From: Escherichia coli
GTDB lineage: Bacteria > Pseudomonadota > Gammaproteobacteria > Enterobacterales > Enterobacteriaceae
DNA length: 64,000 bases
Assembly: GCF_013122565.1 (NCBI RefSeq)
Contig: NZ_CP053258.1
Strand: one strand, 5' to 3'
The notes beneath the pieces are model-generated. The model made no database searches. It was given only the letters and a program-made list of their open reading frames with translations, and was not told where the DNA came from. Position 1 is the stretch's first letter; each line of letters starts with the position of its first letter. Below are positions 559 to 27,743 of this stretch, one piece after another. Both the position numbers and the translations under genes were made by a program.

Positions 559-913
559 GCAATAGAAAGATTCCTGTTATTTGTTTATGTCGATATATTA
601 CCCAATGGAAATAGTCACTTTTTTCTACCCTAACATACTGAGAATCTGAGGCAACCCCTGATGGCAAATGTGGCATGAATATTGATGCGAGCAAATCGCC
701 GGAATTTCCCGTGATATAAGGGCTGAGAGCAAATCGAGAAAAGTTGATATTTTTTGTCAAAGATAGCGAAAAAACGCCTGAATATTGTGGTTTCAGGCGA
801 ATAATGCAACAGAGTATCAGTGTAGATCACCACAAAATATTTGCGTGATAAAAAGCTATTTGGCGTGAATTATTTCCCTGTCGCGGGTAGTGATATTTTT
901 GAAAATAACACCC

Positions 914-1882
<969 letters not shown>

Positions 1883-4027
1883 TTAAAGTGCGCAGGAGAC
1901 GCAGCCTTCAATTTCAGTGCCTTCCAGCGCCATCTGACGCAGGCGGATGTAGTAGAGCGTTTTGATACCCTTGCGCCAGGCGTAAATCTGCGCTTTGTTG
2001 ATATCGCGAGTGGTGGCGGTATCGGGGAAAAACAGCGTCAGCGACAGCCCCTGATCGACATGGCGAGTCGCTTCCGCGTAGGTGTCGATGATCTTTTCTG
2101 CGCCGATTTCGTAAGCATCCTGATATAGCGCCAGATTCTCGTTAGTCATAAACGGGGCAGGGTAGTAAACGCGTCCTGTTTTGCCCTCTTTGCGTATCTC
2201 TACTTTCGCCACAATCGGATGAATACTCGACGTAGCATGGTTGATATAAGAGATAGAACCGGTTGGCGGCACCGCCTGAAGATTCTGGTTGTAAATGCCG
2301 TAGCGCATCACGTCGTCGCGCAGCTGCGCCCACATCTCACGGGTAGGTAACGTAATACCGCTACGGGTAAACAGTTCGCCAACTTTCGCCGTTTTCGGCT
2401 GCCAGTTCCCTTGCAGATATTGGCTAAAATATTCACCACTGGCATAGCGTGACTGTTTGTACCCGGCGAAGGTTTCACCGCGTTCGCGTGCCAGCAACAT
2501 CGAGGTACGCAGTGCGTGCCAGGTGATGGCATAGAAATAGAGATTGGTGAAATCCAGTGCTTCCGGCGAACCATAAGCGATGCCTTCTCGCGCCAGATAG
2601 CCGTGTAAATTCATCTGCCCCAGTCCGATGGCGTGCGAGGCGGCATTTCCGGCTTCGATGGACGGCACGCTGCGAATATGACTCATATCTGATACTGCCG
2701 TTAAACCGCGCACGGCAGTCTCTACCGTGCGGGCAAAGTCGGGGGAATCCATGGTGTGGGCAATATTCAACGAACCTAAATTGCAGGAAATATCATGGCC
2801 TGTACGGGCATAGTCGAGATTCTCGTCATACTCTGAGGCACAGTTGACCTGCAAAATCTCTGAGCAAAGATTGCTCATATTTATGCGCCCGGCGATAGGG
2901 TTAGCACGGTTTACCGTGTCTTCATACATGATGTACGGATAGCCGGACTCAAACTGGATTTCTGCCAGCCGCTGGAAGAAATCACGGGCGTTGAGGTATT
3001 TTTTGCGGATGCGTTCATCGGCAACCAGTTCGTCATAGTGTTCGCTAATGGCGATATCGGCAAACGGCTTGCCATAAACTCGCTCAACGTCATAGGGCGA
3101 AAACAGCGCCATCTGCGCATTCTCTTTTGCCAGATGGAAAGTGATATCCGGGATCACCACCCCCAGCGACAGTGTTTTAATGCGGATTTTTTCGTCGGCA
3201 TTTTCCCGCTTTGTATCGAGAAAACGCAGAATATCGGGATGATGAGCATGTAAATAGACTGCCCCAGCCCCCTGACGCGCGCCGAGCTGGTTGGCATAGG
3301 AAAATGCGTCTTCCAGCATTTTCATCACCGGAATCACGCCAGAAGATTGATTTTCAATACGTTTAATTGGCGCGCCCGCTTCTCGCAGATTCGACAGCAA
3401 AAATGCTACGCCGCCGCCGCGTTTCGACAGTTGCAGTGCGGAATTTACCGCCCGGCCAATCGACTCCATATTGTCTTCAATACGCAGCAGAAAACAGGAA
3501 ACCAGTTCGCCGCGCTGCTGCTTACCGCAGTTGAGGAATGTCGGCGTGGCTGGCTGAAAGCGTCCAGACAGCATCTCATCAGTTAGCTGGGTCGCCAGTG
3601 TTTCATCGCCTTGTGCCAGCGTCAGCGCCACCATCGTGACTCGATCGGCAAAATCTTCCAGATAACGCTTACCGTCGAATGTTTTCAGCGTATAGCTGGT
3701 GTAAAACTTCCATGCCCCGAGGAATGTCTGGAAACGAAAACCGCTGGCGTGCGCGTGGGCAAACAGCGTAATGACAAAATCGCGAGAGTAGCGGTTGAGG
3801 ACGTTTTCATCATAGTAACCTTCGTTGACCAGCCAGTTCAGGCGCTGCTGCTGGCTACTGAAGGTCACACTGTTCGGACGCACATGTGTCGTCATAAAGG
3901 CGTCTACTGCCTGGCGGTCTTTATCGAACTGAATGCGACCTGCGCTATCGTAAAGATTAAGCATCGCATTCAGAGCGTGATAATCCATCGTTTCCTGCGT
4001 CAGGCGTTCTGCGGTTGTCGTTGCCAA
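1883..4027 (-). CDS. nrdE: Class Ib ribonucleotide reductase alpha subunit
   Basis: 714-aa ORF; ends with C-terminal redox cysteine pair (…EGCVSCAL); operon context nrdHIEF. Confidence 0.95.
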
Positions 4028-4410
4028 AATTCGGTTACTCCTTTACGAACGTTTTCGATATCGCTTTGCGTACCCATGAGTTCAAAGCGGTACAGCCACG
4101 GCACGCCGCATTTCCGGGCAATCACATCTCCGGCGCGGCCATACGCCTCACCAAAGTTGCGATTACCCGAAGCAATAACGCCGCGCAGCAACGCCCGGTT
4201 ATGCTCGTCGTTTAAAAAGCGAATTACCTGTCGTGGCACCGCGCCAGCTGTACCGCCGCCGCCGTAAGAGGGCACGATCAGGATGTAAGGCTCGTCTACC
4301 TGAATCCGTTCCCGCTCATTGAGCGGGATGCGCACCGCGGGCAGCCCTAAACGTTCGATAAAACGCTGCGTATTTTCGGAGCTGCTGGAGAAGTAGACGA
4401 GCTGGCTCAT
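4000..4410 (-). CDS. nrdI: Flavodoxin-like NrdI
   Basis: 136-aa ORF between nrdH and nrdE; overlaps nrdE start by 28 nt. Confidence 0.92.
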
Positions 4411-21989: not shown

Positions 21990-22300
21990 AGCAATAACAG
22001 CGTTACGGTGCACCACGCCTGACTGAAGAACTGCGTGCTCAGGGTTACCACTTCAACGTAAAACCGTGGCAGGAGGTCCGGACTGAAAAAACTGCTCAGG
22101 ACATTATCGGCAGGGTACGCACTGGTAGTCTGTAAACTGAACCGACTGGGGCGCAGTATGTGGCATCTTGTCGTGCTGTTGGAGGAGCTGTGCGGACGTG
22201 GTATTAACTTTCGTGCTCTGGCCCAATCTATATTTGCCCAACAATGGGGGGACGGAAGCTGTAAAAGTAAAATAATCTGCGATCTCAGATTTATTGAGTG
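21990..22300 (+). pseudogene. pinH: Frameshifted remnant of a Pin/Hin/Gin-family serine DNA invertase (pinH-like)
   Basis: One frame translates to [52 protein letters not shown], which aligns well with Pin/Gin …PGLKRALKRLQKGDTLVVWKLDRLGRSMKHLISLVGELRERGINFRSLTDSI…; upstream similarity continues only after a frameshift, and no N-terminal catalytic Ser region or C-terminal HTH is present. Confidence 0.55.
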
Positions 22301-22639
22301 ATTTTTATGTGAGCAGAAGATATTCATCAGAAACGATTATGTAAATCATTTTATTTTGCCGACTGCCTGATTGTCGAAAGAAAAGAATACGCCCGTGTTT
22401 CCTGAATAGATTGACTTTTTTATCCAACCACACTTCAGCGCACTGCGTTTAAAAAATGCCTCATTCTTATGCGGAATATCATCATTTCATCATGATGTCT
22501 TTGATGAGCGGTGAACACAATACACTTGCGCTGTCTCTTCAGGATGAATCCCCTGGTCTGGTGCCTGTGGGCTGATGTTGCAGCAAAGCTAAGGTCGCTT
22601 AAACGCTACTCAGTATTCACTTTTCAGAGGATGAAATTT

Positions 22640-25600
22640 ATGAACAGGACCAGTCCCTATTATTGTCGTCGCTCAGTACTTTCCTTATTGATATCTGCCT
22701 TGATATATGCCCCGCCCGGGATGGCTGCCTTCACTCCTGATGTTATTGGTGTGGTAAACGATGAGACTGTAGATGGCAGCCAACGAGTAGATGAACGAGG
22801 TACAACAAATAACACTCATATTATCAACCATGGCCAGCAGAATGTTTATGGCGGGGTATCTAATGGAAGTCTTATTGAATCTGGTGGATATCAAGATGTA
22901 GGAAGGCATAACAATTATGTGGGGCAGTCTAATAATACAACCATTAACGGGGGCAGACAGACAATTCATGACGGGGGTATTTCCACAGGTACGATAATCG
23001 AGAGTGGCAATCAGGACGTTTATACAGGTGGTATCAGCAATAGAACGACAATTAAGGGTGGTAATTCACACATAAGTGGGGGGACTGCGAATGGCACAAT
23101 CATTGATGGTGGCAGCCAACGAGTAACAACTCAGGGGCATGTCGACAGTACAACGATAAATAAGTCTGGCTCTCAGGACATCACGCAAGGAAGTCTGGCA
23201 ACGAACACCATCATAAATGGTGGTCGACAGTATGTTGAACAGAGCACAGTAGAAACAACCACCATTAAAAATGGCGGTGAGCAAAGAGTATATGAGAGCC
23301 GTGCGCTGGACACGACGATTGAAGGCGGAACTCAGTCTCTGAATAGTAAGTCAACGGCAAAAAATACGCAGATCTATTCTGGTGGCACGCAAATTGTTGA
23401 TAACACCAGCACCTCGGATGTTATTGAAGTTTATTCCGGTGGCGTGCTTGATGTTAGTGGTGGTACGGCAACAAATGTTACCCAGCACGATGGTGCAATT
23501 TTAAAAACTAACACTAACGGTACGACGGTGAGCGGTACGAATAGTGAAGGTGCATTCTCCATCCACAATCACGTGGCAGACAATGTGTTGCTGGAAAACG
23601 GTGGTCATTTAGACATAAACGCATATGGTTCGGCAAACAAGACGATTATTAAAGATAAAGGAACAATGTCAGTTTTAACCAATGCTAAAGCTGATGCGAC
23701 CCGAATAGATAATGGCGGGGTTATGGATGTTGCAGGAAACGCGACAAATACCATAATTAATGGTGGCACACAGAATATTAATAATTATGGCATAGCCACA
23801 GGCACCAATATCAACAGCGGAACGCAAAATATCAAAAGCGGCGGGAAAGCTGACACAACAATTATATCCTCCGGGAGCCGGCAGGTTGTTGAGAAAGATG
23901 GTACGGCAATTGGCAGCAATATTAGCGCCGGAGGCTCGCTGATTGTCTATACCGGCGGTATTGCACATGGGGTTAACCAGGAGACGGGCAGTGCTTTAGT
24001 TGCCAACACGGGTGCAGGGACTGATATCGAAGGATACAACAAGCTCTCTCACTTCACTATTACCGGAGGGGAGGCTAATTATGTTGTGCTGGAAAATACC
24101 GGCGAACTGACGGTAGTGGCTAAAACCTCGGCGAAAAATACTACCATTGATGCTGGCGGTAAGCTGATTGTCCAGAAGGAGGCTAAAACAGATAGCACCA
24201 GACTTAATAATGGCGGCGTTCTGGAGGTTCAGGATGGTGGTGAGGCTAAGCATGTTGAGCAACAATCCGGCGGCGCATTAATTGCTTCCACGACTTCCGG
24301 AACACTTATCGAAGGAATCAACAGTTATGGTGATGCTTTCTACATCAGGAATTCAGAAGCTAAAAATGTAGTGCTGGAAAACGCTGGCTCATTAACAGTC
24401 GTCACTGGTTCCCGGGCAGTTGATACGATTATTAATGCCAACGGCAAAATGGATGTTTATGGAAAAGATGTTGGCACTGTACTCAATAGTGCTGGCACCC
24501 AAACAATATATGCCAGTGCCACTTCTGATAAAGCAAATATCAAAGGTGGCAAGCAAACGGTATATGGTTTAGCCACTGAAGCAAATATCGAAAGTGGTGA
24601 ACAAATTGTTGATGGTGGGTCAACAGACAAAACGCACATCAATGGCGGTACGCAAACCGTTCAGAATTATGGTAAGGCAATCAATACCGATATCGTCTCT
24701 GGCCTACAACAAATTATGGCAAACGGGACAGCGGAAGGTTCCATTATTAATGGCGGTTCACAGGTAGTTAATGAGGGCGGTCTGGCTGAAAATTCGGTGC
24801 TTAATGACGGCGGCATACTCGATGTGCGGGAGAAAGGCAGCGCAACGGGGATACAGCAGAGTAGCCAGGGCGCTTTGGTTGCAACCACCAGGGCGACGCG
24901 GGTCAAAGGAACACGCGCGGATGGCGTCGCGTTCAGCATCGAGCAGGGTGCGGCGAACAATATCCTGCTGGCAAATGGCGGCGTGTTAACCGTGGAGTCA
25001 GACACCTCTTCTGACAAAACACAGGTCAAGACGGGCGGACGGGAGATCGTCAAAACAAAAGCCACTGCGACAGGCACGACGCTCACCGGCGGTGAACAAA
25101 TTGTCGAGGGTGTGGCGAATGAGACAACAATTAACGACGGCGGAATACAAACAGTTTCAGCTAACGGAGAGGCAATAAAAACAAAGATCAATGAAGGCGG
25201 TACGCTGACAGTCAACGATAATGGCAAAGCGACAGATATCGTCCAGAACAGCGGTGCCGCTCTCCAGACGAGCACGGCTAACGGTATTGAAATCAGCGGT
25301 ACTCACCAGTACGGCACTTTTTCCATTGTCGGCAATTTAGCGACCAATATGTTGCTGGAAAATGGCGGTAATTTATTGGTATTAGCAGGTACCGAAGCTC
25401 GCGACTCCACGGTTGGCAAGGGTGGGGCAATGCAAAACCTGGGTCAGGACTCCGCTACAAAGGTTAACTCTGGCGGGCAATATACCCTTGGGCGGTCAAA
25501 AGATGAGTTTCAGCCTCTGGCCCGGGCAGAAGATCTCCAGGTCGCTGGCGGTACGGCAATCGTCTACGCAGGTACGCTGGCGGATGCATCGGTCAGTGGC

Positions 25601-27220
25601 GCGACAGGAAGCCTGTCGTTAATGACGCCACGGGATAATGTTACGCCAGTTAAACTCGAAGGGGCGGTCCGGATTACCGATAGCGCGACATTAACTCTGG
25701 GAAATGGCGTCGATACAACGCTTGCCGACCTGACGGCTGCCAGCCGGGGCAGTGTCTGGCTTAACAGCAATAATTCCTGTGCAGGTACCAGCAACTGCGA
25801 ATATAGAGTAAACAGTTTGCTACTCAACGACGGTGATGTTTATTTATCAGCACAAACAGCTGCGCCTGCCACAACTAACGGTATCTACAATACGCTGACA
25901 ACCAATGAACTTTCCGGTAGCGGTAATTTCTACCTGCATACCAACGTTGCTGGCTCCCGCGGTGATCAACTGGTCGTCAGCAACAACGCCACTGGTAATT
26001 TTAAAATCTTTGTTCAGGATACCGGCGTCAGCCCTCAGTCTGACGATGCGATGACGCTGGTGAAAACAGGGGGAGGGGATGCGTCGTTTACGCTGGGCAA
26101 TACCGGCGGTTTCGTTGATCTTGGGACCTATGAGTATGTCCTGAAAAGCGACGGCAACAGCAACTGGAACCTGACCAATGATGTCAAACCCAACCCGGAC
26201 CCCAACCCAAATCCAAAGCCAGACCCAAAACCCGATCCAACGCCAGACCCAAATCCAAAACCAGACCCGACTCCCGAGCCAACGCCGACACCCGTTCCGG
26301 AGAAACGCATTACGCCTTCTACGGCAGCCGTACTCAATATGGCAGCAACATTACCGTTGGTATTTGATGCTGAGCTAAACAGTATTCGCGAGCGGTTGAA
26401 CATAATGAAAGCGAGTCCACACAACAATAATGTCTGGGGGGCGACGTATAACACCCGTAATAATGTCACCACCGATGCGGGGGCTGGGTTTGAGCAGACG
26501 CTGACCGGAATGACAGTGGGGATCGACAGTCGTAATGATATTCCTGAAGGGATTGCCACGCTGGGCGCTTTTATGGGCTATTCACATTCACATATCGGTT
26601 TTGATCGCGGAGGACATGGCAGTGTGGGCAGTTATTCTCTGGGCGGCTATGCCAGTTGGGAACATGAAAGTGGTTTTTATCTGGACGGTGTCGTGAAGCT
26701 GAACCGTTTTGAAAGTAACGTAGCCGGTAAAATGAGCAGCGGTGGAGCCGCCAACGGCAGTTATCGCAGCAACGGGCTGGGCGGTCACATTGAAACCGGG
26801 ATGCGATTTACCGATGGTAACTGGAACCTGACGCCGTATGCATCGTTAACGGGGTTCACCGCTGATAACCCCGAATATCATTTATCCAATGGCATGGAAT
26901 CGAAATCAGTCGATACTCGCAGTATATATCGCGAACTGGGCGCAACGCTGAGTTACAACATGCGTCTGGGGAACGGTATGGAAATTGAGCCGTGGCTGAA
27001 GGCGGCTGTACGCAAAGAATTTGTCGATGATAACCGGGTGAAGGTGAATAATGACGGTAATTTCGTCAATGATTTGTCGGGCAGACGTGGAATATACCAG
27101 GCAGGTATTAAAGCCTCATTCAGCAGTACGTTAAGCGGGCATCTCGGGGTGGGGTATAGCCATGGTGCCGGTGTGGAATCACCGTGGAACGCGGTAGCTG
27201 GTGTGAACTGGTCGTTCTGA
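22640..27220 (+). CDS. ypjA: AIDA-I/YpjA-type autotransporter adhesin (type Va secretion)
   Basis: Track ORF 22511..27220; start placed at MNRTSPYYCRRSVLSLLISALIYAPPGMAA (extended signal peptide, SD agagga upstream) giving 1526 aa. Long passenger with ~19-residue degenerate repeats (…T.INGG.Q.V…GG…), Pro-rich linker KPNPDPNPNPKPDPKPDPTPDPNPKPDPTPEPTPTPVP, C-terminal beta-barrel ending …GVNWSF. Confidence 0.9.
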   Translation: MNRTSPYYCRRSVLSLLISALIYAPPGMAAFTPDVIGVVNDETVDGSQRVDERGTTNNTHIINHGQQNVYGGVSNGSLIESGGYQDVGRHNNYVGQSNNTTINGGRQTIHDGGISTGTIIESGNQDVYTGGISNRTTIKGGNSHISGGTANGTIIDGGSQRVTTQGHVDSTTINKSGSQDITQGSLATNTIINGGRQYVEQSTVETTTIKNGGEQRVYESRALDTTIEGGTQSLNSKSTAKNTQIYSGGTQIVDNTSTSDVIEVYSGGVLDVSGGTATNVTQHDGAILKTNTNGTTVSGTNSEGAFSIHNHVADNVLLENGGHLDINAYGSANKTIIKDKGTMSVLTNAKADATRIDNGGVMDVAGNATNTIINGGTQNINNYGIATGTNINSGTQNIKSGGKADTTIISSGSRQVVEKDGTAIGSNISAGGSLIVYTGGIAHGVNQETGSALVANTGAGTDIEGYNKLSHFTITGGEANYVVLENTGELTVVAKTSAKNTTIDAGGKLIVQKEAKTDSTRLNNGGVLEVQDGGEAKHVEQQSGGALIASTTSGTLIEGINSYGDAFYIRNSEAKNVVLENAGSLTVVTGSRAVDTIINANGKMDVYGKDVGTVLNSAGTQTIYASATSDKANIKGGKQTVYGLATEANIESGEQIVDGGSTDKTHINGGTQTVQNYGKAINTDIVSGLQQIMANGTAEGSIINGGSQVVNEGGLAENSVLNDGGILDVREKGSATGIQQSSQGALVATTRATRVKGTRADGVAFSIEQGAANNILLANGGVLTVESDTSSDKTQVKTGGREIVKTKATATGTTLTGGEQIVEGVANETTINDGGIQTVSANGEAIKTKINEGGTLTVNDNGKATDIVQNSGAALQTSTANGIEISGTHQYGTFSIVGNLATNMLLENGGNLLVLAGTEARDSTVGKGGAMQNLGQDSATKVNSGGQYTLGRSKDEFQPLARAEDLQVAGGTAIVYAGTLADASVSGATGSLSLMTPRDNVTPVKLEGAVRITDSATLTLGNGVDTTLADLTAASRGSVWLNSNNSCAGTSNCEYRVNSLLLNDGDVYLSAQTAAPATTNGIYNTLTTNELSGSGNFYLHTNVAGSRGDQLVVSNNATGNFKIFVQDTGVSPQSDDAMTLVKTGGGDASFTLGNTGGFVDLGTYEYVLKSDGNSNWNLTNDVKPNPDPNPNPKPDPKPDPTPDPNPKPDPTPEPTPTPVPEKRITPSTAAVLNMAATLPLVFDAELNSIRERLNIMKASPHNNNVWGATYNTRNNVTTDAGAGFEQTLTGMTVGIDSRNDIPEGIATLGAFMGYSHSHIGFDRGGHGSVGSYSLGGYASWEHESGFYLDGVVKLNRFESNVAGKMSSGGAANGSYRSNGLGGHIETGMRFTDGNWNLTPYASLTGFTADNPEYHLSNGMESKSVDTRSIYRELGATLSYNMRLGNGMEIEPWLKAAVRKEFVDDNRVKVNNDGNFVNDLSGRRGIYQAGIKASFSSTLSGHLGVGYSHGAGVESPWNAVAGVNWSF

Positions 27221-27232
27221 CCATCAACGAAA

Positions 27233-27255
27233 AAGCCCACATCTGTGGGCTTTCA
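27233..27255 (+). terminator. Putative intrinsic terminator after ypjA
   Basis: aaaaagcccacatctgtgggctttc: GC stem gcccac/gtgggc followed by a short T tract. Confidence 0.45.
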
Positions 27256-27380
27256 TGTTACCAGGAGCCGCGGCTCCTTTGCGTATCCTTTTTTGTCTCC
27301 TCACCGTCTGGTCGGTGTCCTGCTGAGACTGCTAACTTCCTGTTTTTGTTGGTGTTGTCCTTACACCGTCCAATCATGAT

Positions 27381-27743
27381 TGGTGGAGCTGGCGGGAGTT
27401 GAACCCGCGTCCGAAATTCCTACATCCTCGGTACTACATGCTTAGTCAGTCTTTACATTCGCTTGCCAGCTGCGGACGGACACGCCACTAACAAACTAGC
27501 CTGATTAAGTTTTAACGCTTCAACCCCAGGCAGGGCTTCCACGCGATCTCTTTTGGGTTTGACCTCTCTTGATCCCCGTCCTAAGAGCGGAGGCTAGGGA
27601 GAGAGGGCTCTAAGCAGGTTATTAAGCTGCTAAAGCGTAGTTTTCGTCGTTTGCGACTATTTTTTGCGGCTTTTTACGAGGCCAACCGCCCCTCGGCATG
27701 CACCTTGGGTTTCGCAAATCCCGTCGAATCCAGAATCAGCCCC
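27381..27743 (-). ncRNA. ssrA: tmRNA (SsrA), 363 nt
   Basis: Reverse complement reads GGGGCTGATTCTGGATTCGACGGGATTTGCGAAACCCAAGGTGCATGCCGAGG … and contains the tag reading frame GCAAACGACGAAAACTACGCTTTAGCAGCTTAA (ANDENYALAA*) and the tRNA-like 3' end …GGGTTCAACTCCCGCCAGCTCCACCA. Confidence 0.96.

Follow-up and report, generated by a model that had tools for sequence, protein, structure and literature searches.

A probable type Va autotransporter adhesin gene of Escherichia coli, ypjA (ehaD), and the slow in-frame length variation of its Pro-X linker

In which of its repeats, and how often, does a gene composed largely of repeats change in length? This question is raised by ypjA (ehaD), which lies in a stretch of 64,000 nucleotides (nt) of Escherichia coli DNA (RefSeq assembly GCF_013122565.1, contig NZ_CP053258.1), here called the window, to which all positions refer unless stated otherwise. 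The earlier note on this DNA, which was made from the sequence alone, described an AIDA/Ag43-type beta-helix autotransporter of 1526 amino acids (aa) with a repetitive passenger and a short proline-rich linker, and expected that both might vary in length. The locus is very probably the chromosomal ypjA (ehaD) gene of E. coli, encoding a classical type Va autotransporter adhesin whose in-frame linker slips only rarely. Both the gene and its family are already known, annotated and reviewed.

The ypjA coding sequence is intact, with its sole stop codon at the terminus (1526 aa and a stop). The listing of open reading frames (ORFs) gives a longer frame, 22511 to 27220 on the plus strand (1569 aa), that starts at an upstream GTG; the ATG at 22640 coincides with the start codon that RefSeq assigns to ypjA in syntenic E. 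coli genomes. Positions 22400-27400 were compared by megablast with 5,426 complete E. coli genomes, 2,434 of which cover at least 80% of this query. The match of highest identity is strain AB66 (98.5% nt identity over 5 kb). None of the 5,426 genomes is more than 98.5% identical over ypjA, and the source allele is absent from this collection. K-12 MG1655 ypjA is 97.5% identical over 5 kb and is equal in length (1526 aa). The matched gene, 97-98.5% identical in nt and syntenic, is annotated in E. coli genomes as 'adhesin-like autotransporter YpjA/EhaD'. AB66 has the same gene order, and there are no passenger indels relative to either K-12 or AB66. Full-length identity and position between the ypjCB/pin remnant and ssrA place the gene in the YpjA/EhaD orthologue group. 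The identification of the gene and of its family is thus upheld by Pfam, NCBIfam, Protein Data Bank (PDB) sequence matches, AlphaFold2 (AF2), Foldseek and synteny. The gene and the parts of its product are as follows.

22640 to 27220, plus strand: ypjA/ehaD coding sequence.
22640 to 22726, plus strand: candidate Sec signal peptide MNRTSPYYCRRSVLSLLISALIYAPPGMA, followed by AFTPD (translation by eye).
22775 to 25582, plus strand: beta-helix passenger, residues 46-981 (autocorrelation, self-trained hidden Markov model (HMM), Pfam AIDA in 11 stretches, AF2, Foldseek).
25808 to 26176, plus strand: pertactin-like C-terminal passenger domain (autochaperone region), residues 1057-1179 (PF03212; E-value: 1.8e-45).
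26186 to 26299, plus strand: Pro-X linker, residues 1183-1220, (P-X)19 with X = N/D/K/T/E/V; imperfect 12-nt repeats, length-polymorphic.
26315 to 26407, plus strand: alpha-helix, residues 1226-1256 (residues 227-257 of the AF2 model, with a predicted local distance difference test score (pLDDT) of ~85-90).
26432 to 27217, plus strand: 12-stranded outer-membrane beta-barrel translocator, residues 1265-1526 (PF03797, TIGR01414, AF2 strands 264-526).

The linker is the part of ypjA in which length alleles are found. Its 114 nt (26186-26299) translate to KPNPDPNPNPKPDPKPDPTPDPNPKPDPTPEPTPTPVP, a run of 19 dipeptides in which every second residue is proline. The linker sequence given in the earlier note for about 26185-26300 is exact, and its near-tandem structure is recovered by Tandem Repeats Finder (TRF), which reports a period of 12 (4.2 copies, 71% matches) and a period of 42 (2 copies, 87%, score 129). 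A repeat search of the linker gives six 42-nt copies spaced 12 or 18 nt apart. Two short repeats are of particular importance for the alleles.

26201 to 26212, plus strand: 12-nt unit CCCAACCCAAAT, encoding Pro-Asn-Pro-Asn (codon-by-codon allele comparison).
26218 to 26253, plus strand: exact 12-nt direct-repeat pair GCCAGACCCAAA, at 26218-26229 and 26242-26253 (exact-repeat listing).

The segment was measured in 13 genomes between the conserved anchors ...WNLTN and EKRIT... (nucleotide anchors TGGAAYCTGACYAAY and GAGAAACGCAT). Five lengths are found, so that linker length is not identical in all strains.

96 nt: ZF8-1.
114 nt: four strains.
120 nt: this window, K-12, AB66 and PigCaeca_1.
126 nt: O157:H7 EDL933 and CUWW11.
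138 nt: O55:H7 DEC5A.

The unit CCCAACCCAAAT is present once in the window and in K-12, as two exact tandem copies in EDL933 and CUWW11, and as three in DEC5A, which carries a 24-nt insertion at 26205. ZF8-1 lacks 24 nt corresponding to the interval from one copy of GCCAGACCCAAA (26218) to the other (26242). All linker differences are multiples of 6 nt and disturb neither the reading frame nor the Pro-X register; the resulting spacers (K..VP) have 30-44 residues across strains and are always in frame. In the eight full-length genes from other strains that were aligned to the window gene, indels concentrate in the 114-nt linker. The linker can be described as a variable number tandem repeat (VNTR) within a coding sequence, with a 12-nt unit in one, two or three copies, other changes of -6 or -24 nt, and flanks that are 93-99% identical.

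The tempo of this variation was examined in two independent samples of about 58 genomes, each evenly spaced over the approximately 2,500 that carry the region. Length classes of 0, -6 and +6 nt relative to the window account for 31, 18 and 8 genomes in one sample and 30, 18 and 9 in the other, with one additional -24 allele; three alleles make up about 99% of the approximately 115 sampled genomes. Groups of matches with equal scores are always uniform in linker length. For example, this is true of all sampled O157:H7 genomes and of the K-12-like matches (28/28 in one sample and 25/25 in the other). The linker changes slowly and along lineages, which makes it a lineage marker and not a contingency locus. 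The expectation that the linker could expand or contract by slipped-strand mispairing therefore holds in part: five alleles differ in 6-nt steps, but their tempo is slow and they do not behave as contingency alleles do.

The proposed function of the protein is as follows. Based on what is known of the family, a Sec signal peptide would carry YpjA to the periplasm; MNRTSPYYCRRSVLSLLISALIYAPPGMA has a basic N-region, a hydrophobic core and a small-residue GMA motif, as seen on inspection of the translation. The C-terminal 12-stranded barrel would then insert in the outer membrane, its pore occupied by an alpha-helix. The passenger (about 1150 residues) would be threaded out from C- to N-terminus and would fold, starting from the pertactin-like domain, into a long right-handed beta-helix. 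The 38-residue (Pro-X)19 segment between the base of this helix and the pore helix would most likely be extended and unstructured, in a polyproline-II-like form, and serve as a spacer that keeps the adhesin at a distance from the barrel. Polyproline II rises by about 0.3 nm per residue; the 38-residue linker, if extended, would span approximately 12 nm, and the ypjA alleles approximately 9-14 nm. At the DNA level, the linker would gain or lose multiples of 6 nt when replication occasionally slips or when the DNA between two short direct repeats is deleted. Such events would be rare, with each of the three dominant alleles fixed within its own lineage. Slippage or short-repeat deletion is favoured as the source because the 12-mers are exact tandem copies and the deletion is bounded by 12-nt repeats.

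The fold on which this model depends was predicted by several methods. Pfam finds AIDA repeats in 11 stretches (E-value: 1e-145) and the Autotransporter beta-domain PF03797 at residues 1265-1504 (E-value: 7e-46). NCBIfam finds the strand-loop-strand repeat TIGR04415 ten times, and the barrel model TIGR01414 scores 333 bits against a cut-off of 16. Sequence matches in the PDB include Ag43-family passengers (7KO9, 7KOH, 7KOB and 4KH3), TibA (4Q1Q) and the BrkA and Vag8 barrels, and residues 1057-1179 match pertactin (1DAB) and IgA1 protease (3H09). Two AF2 models were made from alignments of 34-35 homologues, one covering passenger residues 28-1200 and one the C-terminal 527 residues. The passenger model (mean pLDDT 80.9) has short beta-strands throughout. 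Its first Foldseek matches are Ag43 7KO9 and 7KOH (E-value: ~1e-25), followed by TibA 4Q1Q and pertactin, with the IcsA autochaperone 3ML3 also found; the beta-helix proposed in the earlier note is thus predicted by structure as well. The C-terminal model (mean pLDDT 83.7) comprises the last rungs, the linker, helix 1226-1256 and a 12-strand barrel, and also matches pertactin 1DAB. In the linker (residues 1185-1221) pLDDT is below 50 and secondary structure is absent. The barrel is most similar to the BrkA beta-domain 3QQ2 (template modelling score 0.91), with EspP, NalP and the AIDA-I transport unit 4MEE also matched. From the transport-unit matches to EspP, AIDA-I and BrkA, helix 1226-1256 is predicted to lie inside the barrel pore. 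A PF03797 barrel with a predicted pore helix, together with a beta-helical passenger and an autochaperone-type domain, is the composition of a type Va autotransporter.

In other E. coli, ypjA is often inactivated. The lesions include 1-nt frameshifts (at window-equivalent positions 25423 and 23077), an internal stop, insertion sequence (IS) elements (ISVsa5, IS66 family and IS1203) and the loss of 1320 bp (window 25416-26735), bordered by short imperfect repeats; this deletion, or one of equal size, is found in two strains. About half of the inspected full-length ypjA loci are annotated as pseudogenes.

Several points weigh against the reading of ypjA as an adhesin gene with a rarely slipping linker. 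The probable signal peptide was judged by eye. The spacer conformation draws on low AF2 confidence and on general knowledge of Pro-X repeats, and the expression, export and adhesion of YpjA in the source strain are predictions. The allele frequencies are based on about 115 sampled genomes of about 2,500. The frequent pseudogenes may reflect weak selection on the gene and hence on linker length. Slippage itself is read from allele structure, and recombination, between alleles or with a paralogue, may have spread some of the alleles or even given rise to them. To this can be added that divergence between ypjA alleles is mosaic, with 300-nt windows ranging from 82% to 100% identity within one strain pair, and that such a paralogue shares nearly the whole of ypjA. 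The paralogue, and the small ORF included in the duplicated region, are as follows.

712 to 4110 of the extracted XJ5.2 locus, minus strand: paralogue, 1132 aa, named 'YpjA/EhaD' by the Prokaryotic Genome Annotation Pipeline (PGAP).
22456 to 22575 of the window, plus strand: small 39-aa ORF MPHSYAEYHHFIMMSLMSGEHNTLALSLQDESPGLVPVG (RefSeq hypothetical protein WP_001120794.1; syntenic genomes have it at an equal offset).

This paralogue came to attention as a long (NP)n allele of strain XJ5.2 (579-nt span), which was considered as an expanded ypjA linker and rejected. As the gene is located between minE and ymgJ, it is a paralogue, and it was dropped from the ypjA allele count. Its position is presumably that of the ycgI pseudogene in K-12. 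The paralogue is 91.5% identical to YpjA over 1106 aligned residues. The duplicated DNA corresponds to window 22260-27230, reaching from 380 nt upstream of the start codon to 10 nt past the stop, with 87% identity in the 5' part (upstream region too) and 92.5% in the 3' part. The two genes share the barrel, a linker ending in DPTPDPTPTPVPEKR and the 39-aa ORF, which is conserved upstream of both; the region of this ORF could be regulatory. The paralogue linker is an almost pure run of (Asn-Pro)n, its coding DNA being (AACCCR)n; six genomes have 10, 26, 26, 27, 31 and 37 units, and the paralogue region spans 483 to 645 nt among the 60 best matches. In many strains the paralogue is reduced to remnants, which account for the matches of 11% coverage found beside ymgJ.

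The best-surviving alternative is that the length alleles are old and have been spread by homologous recombination, or by gene conversion from the minE-ymgJ paralogue, with ongoing slippage being minor. In addition to the mosaic divergence and the extent of the duplication, this is favoured by the shuffling of amino-acid variants in rungs 125-190 between strains, by the ending DPTPDPTPTPVP of several ypjA alleles, which is also the paralogue ending, and by the way in which allele length follows lineage. However, recombination moves alleles and cannot create one, two and three exact copies of a 12-mer or a repeat-bounded deletion, and the long (NP)n tract of the paralogue is found in no ypjA allele sampled. 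This explanation is a possible but rather unlikely one, and rare slippage in the linker is preferred.

A separate observation concerns the 5' part of the passenger. Between ypjA alleles there is a divergence hot spot at 22700-23300, where identity in 300-nt windows falls to 82-95%, as against 97-100% in neighbouring windows. The rung amino-acid variants at approximately residues 125-190 are combined mosaically between strains. This pattern points to recombination between alleles, or to diversifying selection, in the distal part of the passenger. Conversion between repeat units was considered for 22950-23350 and rejected; an alternative donor was not found in the gene or in the paralogue.

The earlier note had proposed that the passenger, too, changes in length, by recombination between its repeats. 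The repeats themselves are as it described. When residues 40-1050 are compared with themselves using a BLOSUM matrix, the autocorrelation is highest at offsets of 18 and 19 residues (z of 9.5 and 8.8, respectively, against 50 shuffles); harmonics appear at 35-37 and at 54. An HMM trained on the protein recovers 38 units within residues 46-981, most of them 15-22 residues apart. Diverged rungs go undetected in five intervals of 54-62 residues; we infer approximately 50 degenerate rungs of 18-19 residues, 38 of them detectable. The proposed consensus, T.INGGxQxV..G.A..T, agrees with the family consensus in the homologue alignment. A larger motif, G.FSI....A.N.LLENGG, recurs four times in the passenger. 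The best direct DNA repeats in the passenger are 34-54 nt long with 60-76% identity, and exact repeats anywhere in the gene reach 16 nt at most. The self-similarity expected of 22.6-27.2 kb is accordingly present as protein periodicity and as the tandem repeat of the linker, but is weak in the DNA of the passenger, which is repetitive only as protein. Recombination by RecA in E. coli requires approximately 20-30 bp of exact homology. Because exact matches in ypjA do not exceed 16 nt, the passenger units are poor recombination substrates.

The alleles agree with this. The sole in-frame indel outside the linker in the eight aligned genes is 6 bp at 23613-23618; the remaining non-linker changes are 1-nt frameshifts or the gene-destroying 1320-bp deletion. 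In 17 of 18 evenly sampled full-length loci, the locus span differs by -13 to +18 nt from that of the query, and the 18th has an IS insertion. As the sampled spans stay within these limits, rung number is constant among ypjA alleles.

Changes of rung number among strains through recombination between the 19-residue units are consequently improbable, although two observations favour them. Firstly, the paralogue lacks YpjA residues 118-334 (217 aa, 651 nt) and 528-726 (199 aa, 597 nt), and the junctions of these blocks fall at equivalent repeat positions on both sides (T|II and LN(N/D)GG(V/I)|L(E/D)V) with microhomology (ACGATWAT and CTTAATRAYGGCGGC). Judging from these junctions, in-register changes of rung blocks have occurred since ypjA and its paralogue diverged, with loss or gain alike possible. 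Secondly, the 1320-bp deletion of strain WP8 ends in imperfect GCA..GGTGG.GC repeats, but the gene, having lost its linker along with some of the barrel, is a pseudogene. With a change in rung number in none of the eight aligned genes and none of the 18 sampled loci, and with unit DNA as diverged as described, the proposal of recombinational length variation in the passenger does not hold for the ypjA alleles.

The weakest alternative, that the linker is a contingency repeat whose rapid mutation switches YpjA properties within a clone as in phase-variable surface genes, is very improbable, for although the segment is a tandem repeat and close relatives differ (three PNPN units in O55:H7 DEC5A and two in O157:H7 EDL933), its repeats are imperfect, its length is constant within each identity class, three alleles dominate the samples, and every observed change is a multiple of 6 nt within the ORF, which gives no on/off frameshift.

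Two long ORFs are found on the strand opposite ypjA, and neither is likely to be a gene.

24667 to 25275, minus strand: antisense ORF, 202 aa (ORF listing); most likely not a gene.
26128 to 26559, minus strand: antisense ORF, 143 aa, in which the linker is read as a Gly/Ser-rich (GVGSGFG-type) sequence; most likely not a gene.

Both are open in every strain compared. When the codon order of ypjA was shuffled, the longest antisense open run was 168 +/- 38 aa, 12% of shuffles reached the observed 211 aa, and the 143-aa ORF fell within the shuffled range. These frames had been dismissed in the earlier note as noise from the repeats. They are compatible with chance, but their most likely cause is codon and amino-acid composition and not the repeats as such.

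The surroundings of ypjA are those of an ordinary chromosome, with the gene order gabD, lhgD, glaH, amylase-like gene, tRNA, ypjCB, recombinase remnant, 39-aa ORF, ypjA, ssrA, smpB, ratA, yfjF, bamE and recN. The transfer-messenger RNA gene ssrA (27381-27743, minus strand) lies 160 nt past the ypjA stop codon, with no integrated element between them. As ssrA directly adjoins ypjA, no prophage is integrated there, and the window displays an unoccupied attachment site. Unlike the window, the K-12 match stops short of ssrA; in K-12 the CP4-57 prophage presumably sits between the two genes. The tRNA gene at 19538-19613 is called tRNA-Met (anticodon CAT) by ARAGORN, and the syntenic gene of AB66 is annotated as tRNA-Ile, which we take to be the usual ambiguity of lysidine-modified ileX/ileY-type tRNAs. 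At 20370-21704 there is an intact ORF of 444 aa where AB66 has a gene for a 449-aa 'YpjCB family protein'; at this position K-12 presumably has split ypjC and ypjB pseudogenes. A scan for promoters and terminators gave counts near the shuffled expectation (11 vs 8.1 and 11 vs 6.3) and was not used.

YpjA/EhaD has been described as a biofilm-associated autotransporter of the Ag43/AIDA-I/TibA group, for which a beta-helix has been predicted and the structure is unpublished (PMC9289746; PMC12547504; PMC4076661). It resembles Ag43, AIDA-I and TibA in its 19-residue rungs, pertactin-like C-terminal passenger domain and 12-strand barrel (7KO9, 7KOH, 4KH3, 4Q1Q and 4MEE), but is only 32-37% identical to them, and its passenger is roughly twice as long. 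With 344 bits for the Ag43 model NF033177 and 259 bits for the AIDA-I model NF033176, far below the equivalog cut-off of 1200 bits, YpjA is a relative and not an orthologue of these proteins. Its repeats fit TIGR04415, the 'O-heptosylation target' model. A heptosyltransferase gene of the aah/tibC type, adjacent in glycosylated self-associating autotransporters (AIDA-I, TibA), is absent within 9 kb of ypjA, where the neighbours are ypjCB, the recombinase remnant, the 39-aa ORF, ssrA, smpB and ratA; YpjA may be glycosylated by an enzyme encoded elsewhere.

A long Pro-X linker is absent from most Ag43-like homologues, unlike YpjA. The K-12 YpjA linker differs from that of the window by three amino-acid substitutions. 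A homologue protein search, in which 8000 candidates were scored, was used only for the AF2 alignments and for the orthologue of E. albertii; the full-length YpjA cluster was not among these candidates, which were mostly fragments and Ag43-like proteins. The E. albertii orthologue (1475 aa, 51% identical) has a linker of approximately 3.5 copies of PDPKPDPDPKPN (60 residues), forming a higher-order repeat. The Pro-X spacer is conserved across species as a feature, with turnover of both its sequence and its length.

Similar proline-rich repeats are known from other proteins. The R1 and R2 repeats of pertactin differ in copy number between alleles, in frame and on a slow time scale (PMC8931430). 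The YpjA linker resembles these as a case of slow, in-frame proline-rich repeat variation. R1 and R2 differ from it in that they are known antigenic sites and form loops, located on the beta-helix or at its end, whereas the YpjA repeat is a connector from the passenger base to the pore helix. The TonB spacer is an alternating Pro-X rod (X = Glu/Lys), and YpjA residues 1182-1226 give a weak match to a TonB model (E-value: 0.0014). This likeness is compositional only (18.5 vs 315 bits), and the protein, compartment and function differ.

The linker length of YpjA and its paralogue, from 30 to about 86 Pro-X residues (approximately 9 to 27 nm if extended), could be tuned by selection to the thickness of the O-antigen or capsule of each lineage, a speculative idea that we consider improbable. 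If it is true, the Pro-X VNTR would be a slow 'height adjuster' that controls the exposure or masking of the adhesin tip. Lineage-specific in-frame alleles, the kept P-X register and the 10-37 NP units of the paralogue are consistent with this, but it is weakened by the frequent pseudogenisation of ypjA, which argues for weak selection.

The discovery value of these results is low, since the gene and the kind of variation are already known, but they bear on how the family is read and used. Differences of 2-8 codons between YpjA proteins are linker alleles and not assembly errors. As PGAP gives the name 'YpjA/EhaD' to both ypjA and its paralogue, surveys of adhesin presence, absence and length can conflate two genes. 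The (AACCCR)n tract of the paralogue, a coding repeat that is strongly polymorphic (10-37 units), could serve as a typing marker. It lies outside the generic loci checked for multiple-locus VNTR analysis (MLVA): the 20 primers of the E. coli loci CVN001-017 and CCR001 (PMC8143711) match neither the 64-kb window nor the paralogue locus with up to 3 mismatches. In literature searches that combined ypjA with VNTR, tandem repeat or MLVA, ypjA was unmentioned. Finally, ypjA and its paralogue offer a natural series of linker lengths with which to ask how far an autotransporter passenger must stand from the outer membrane.

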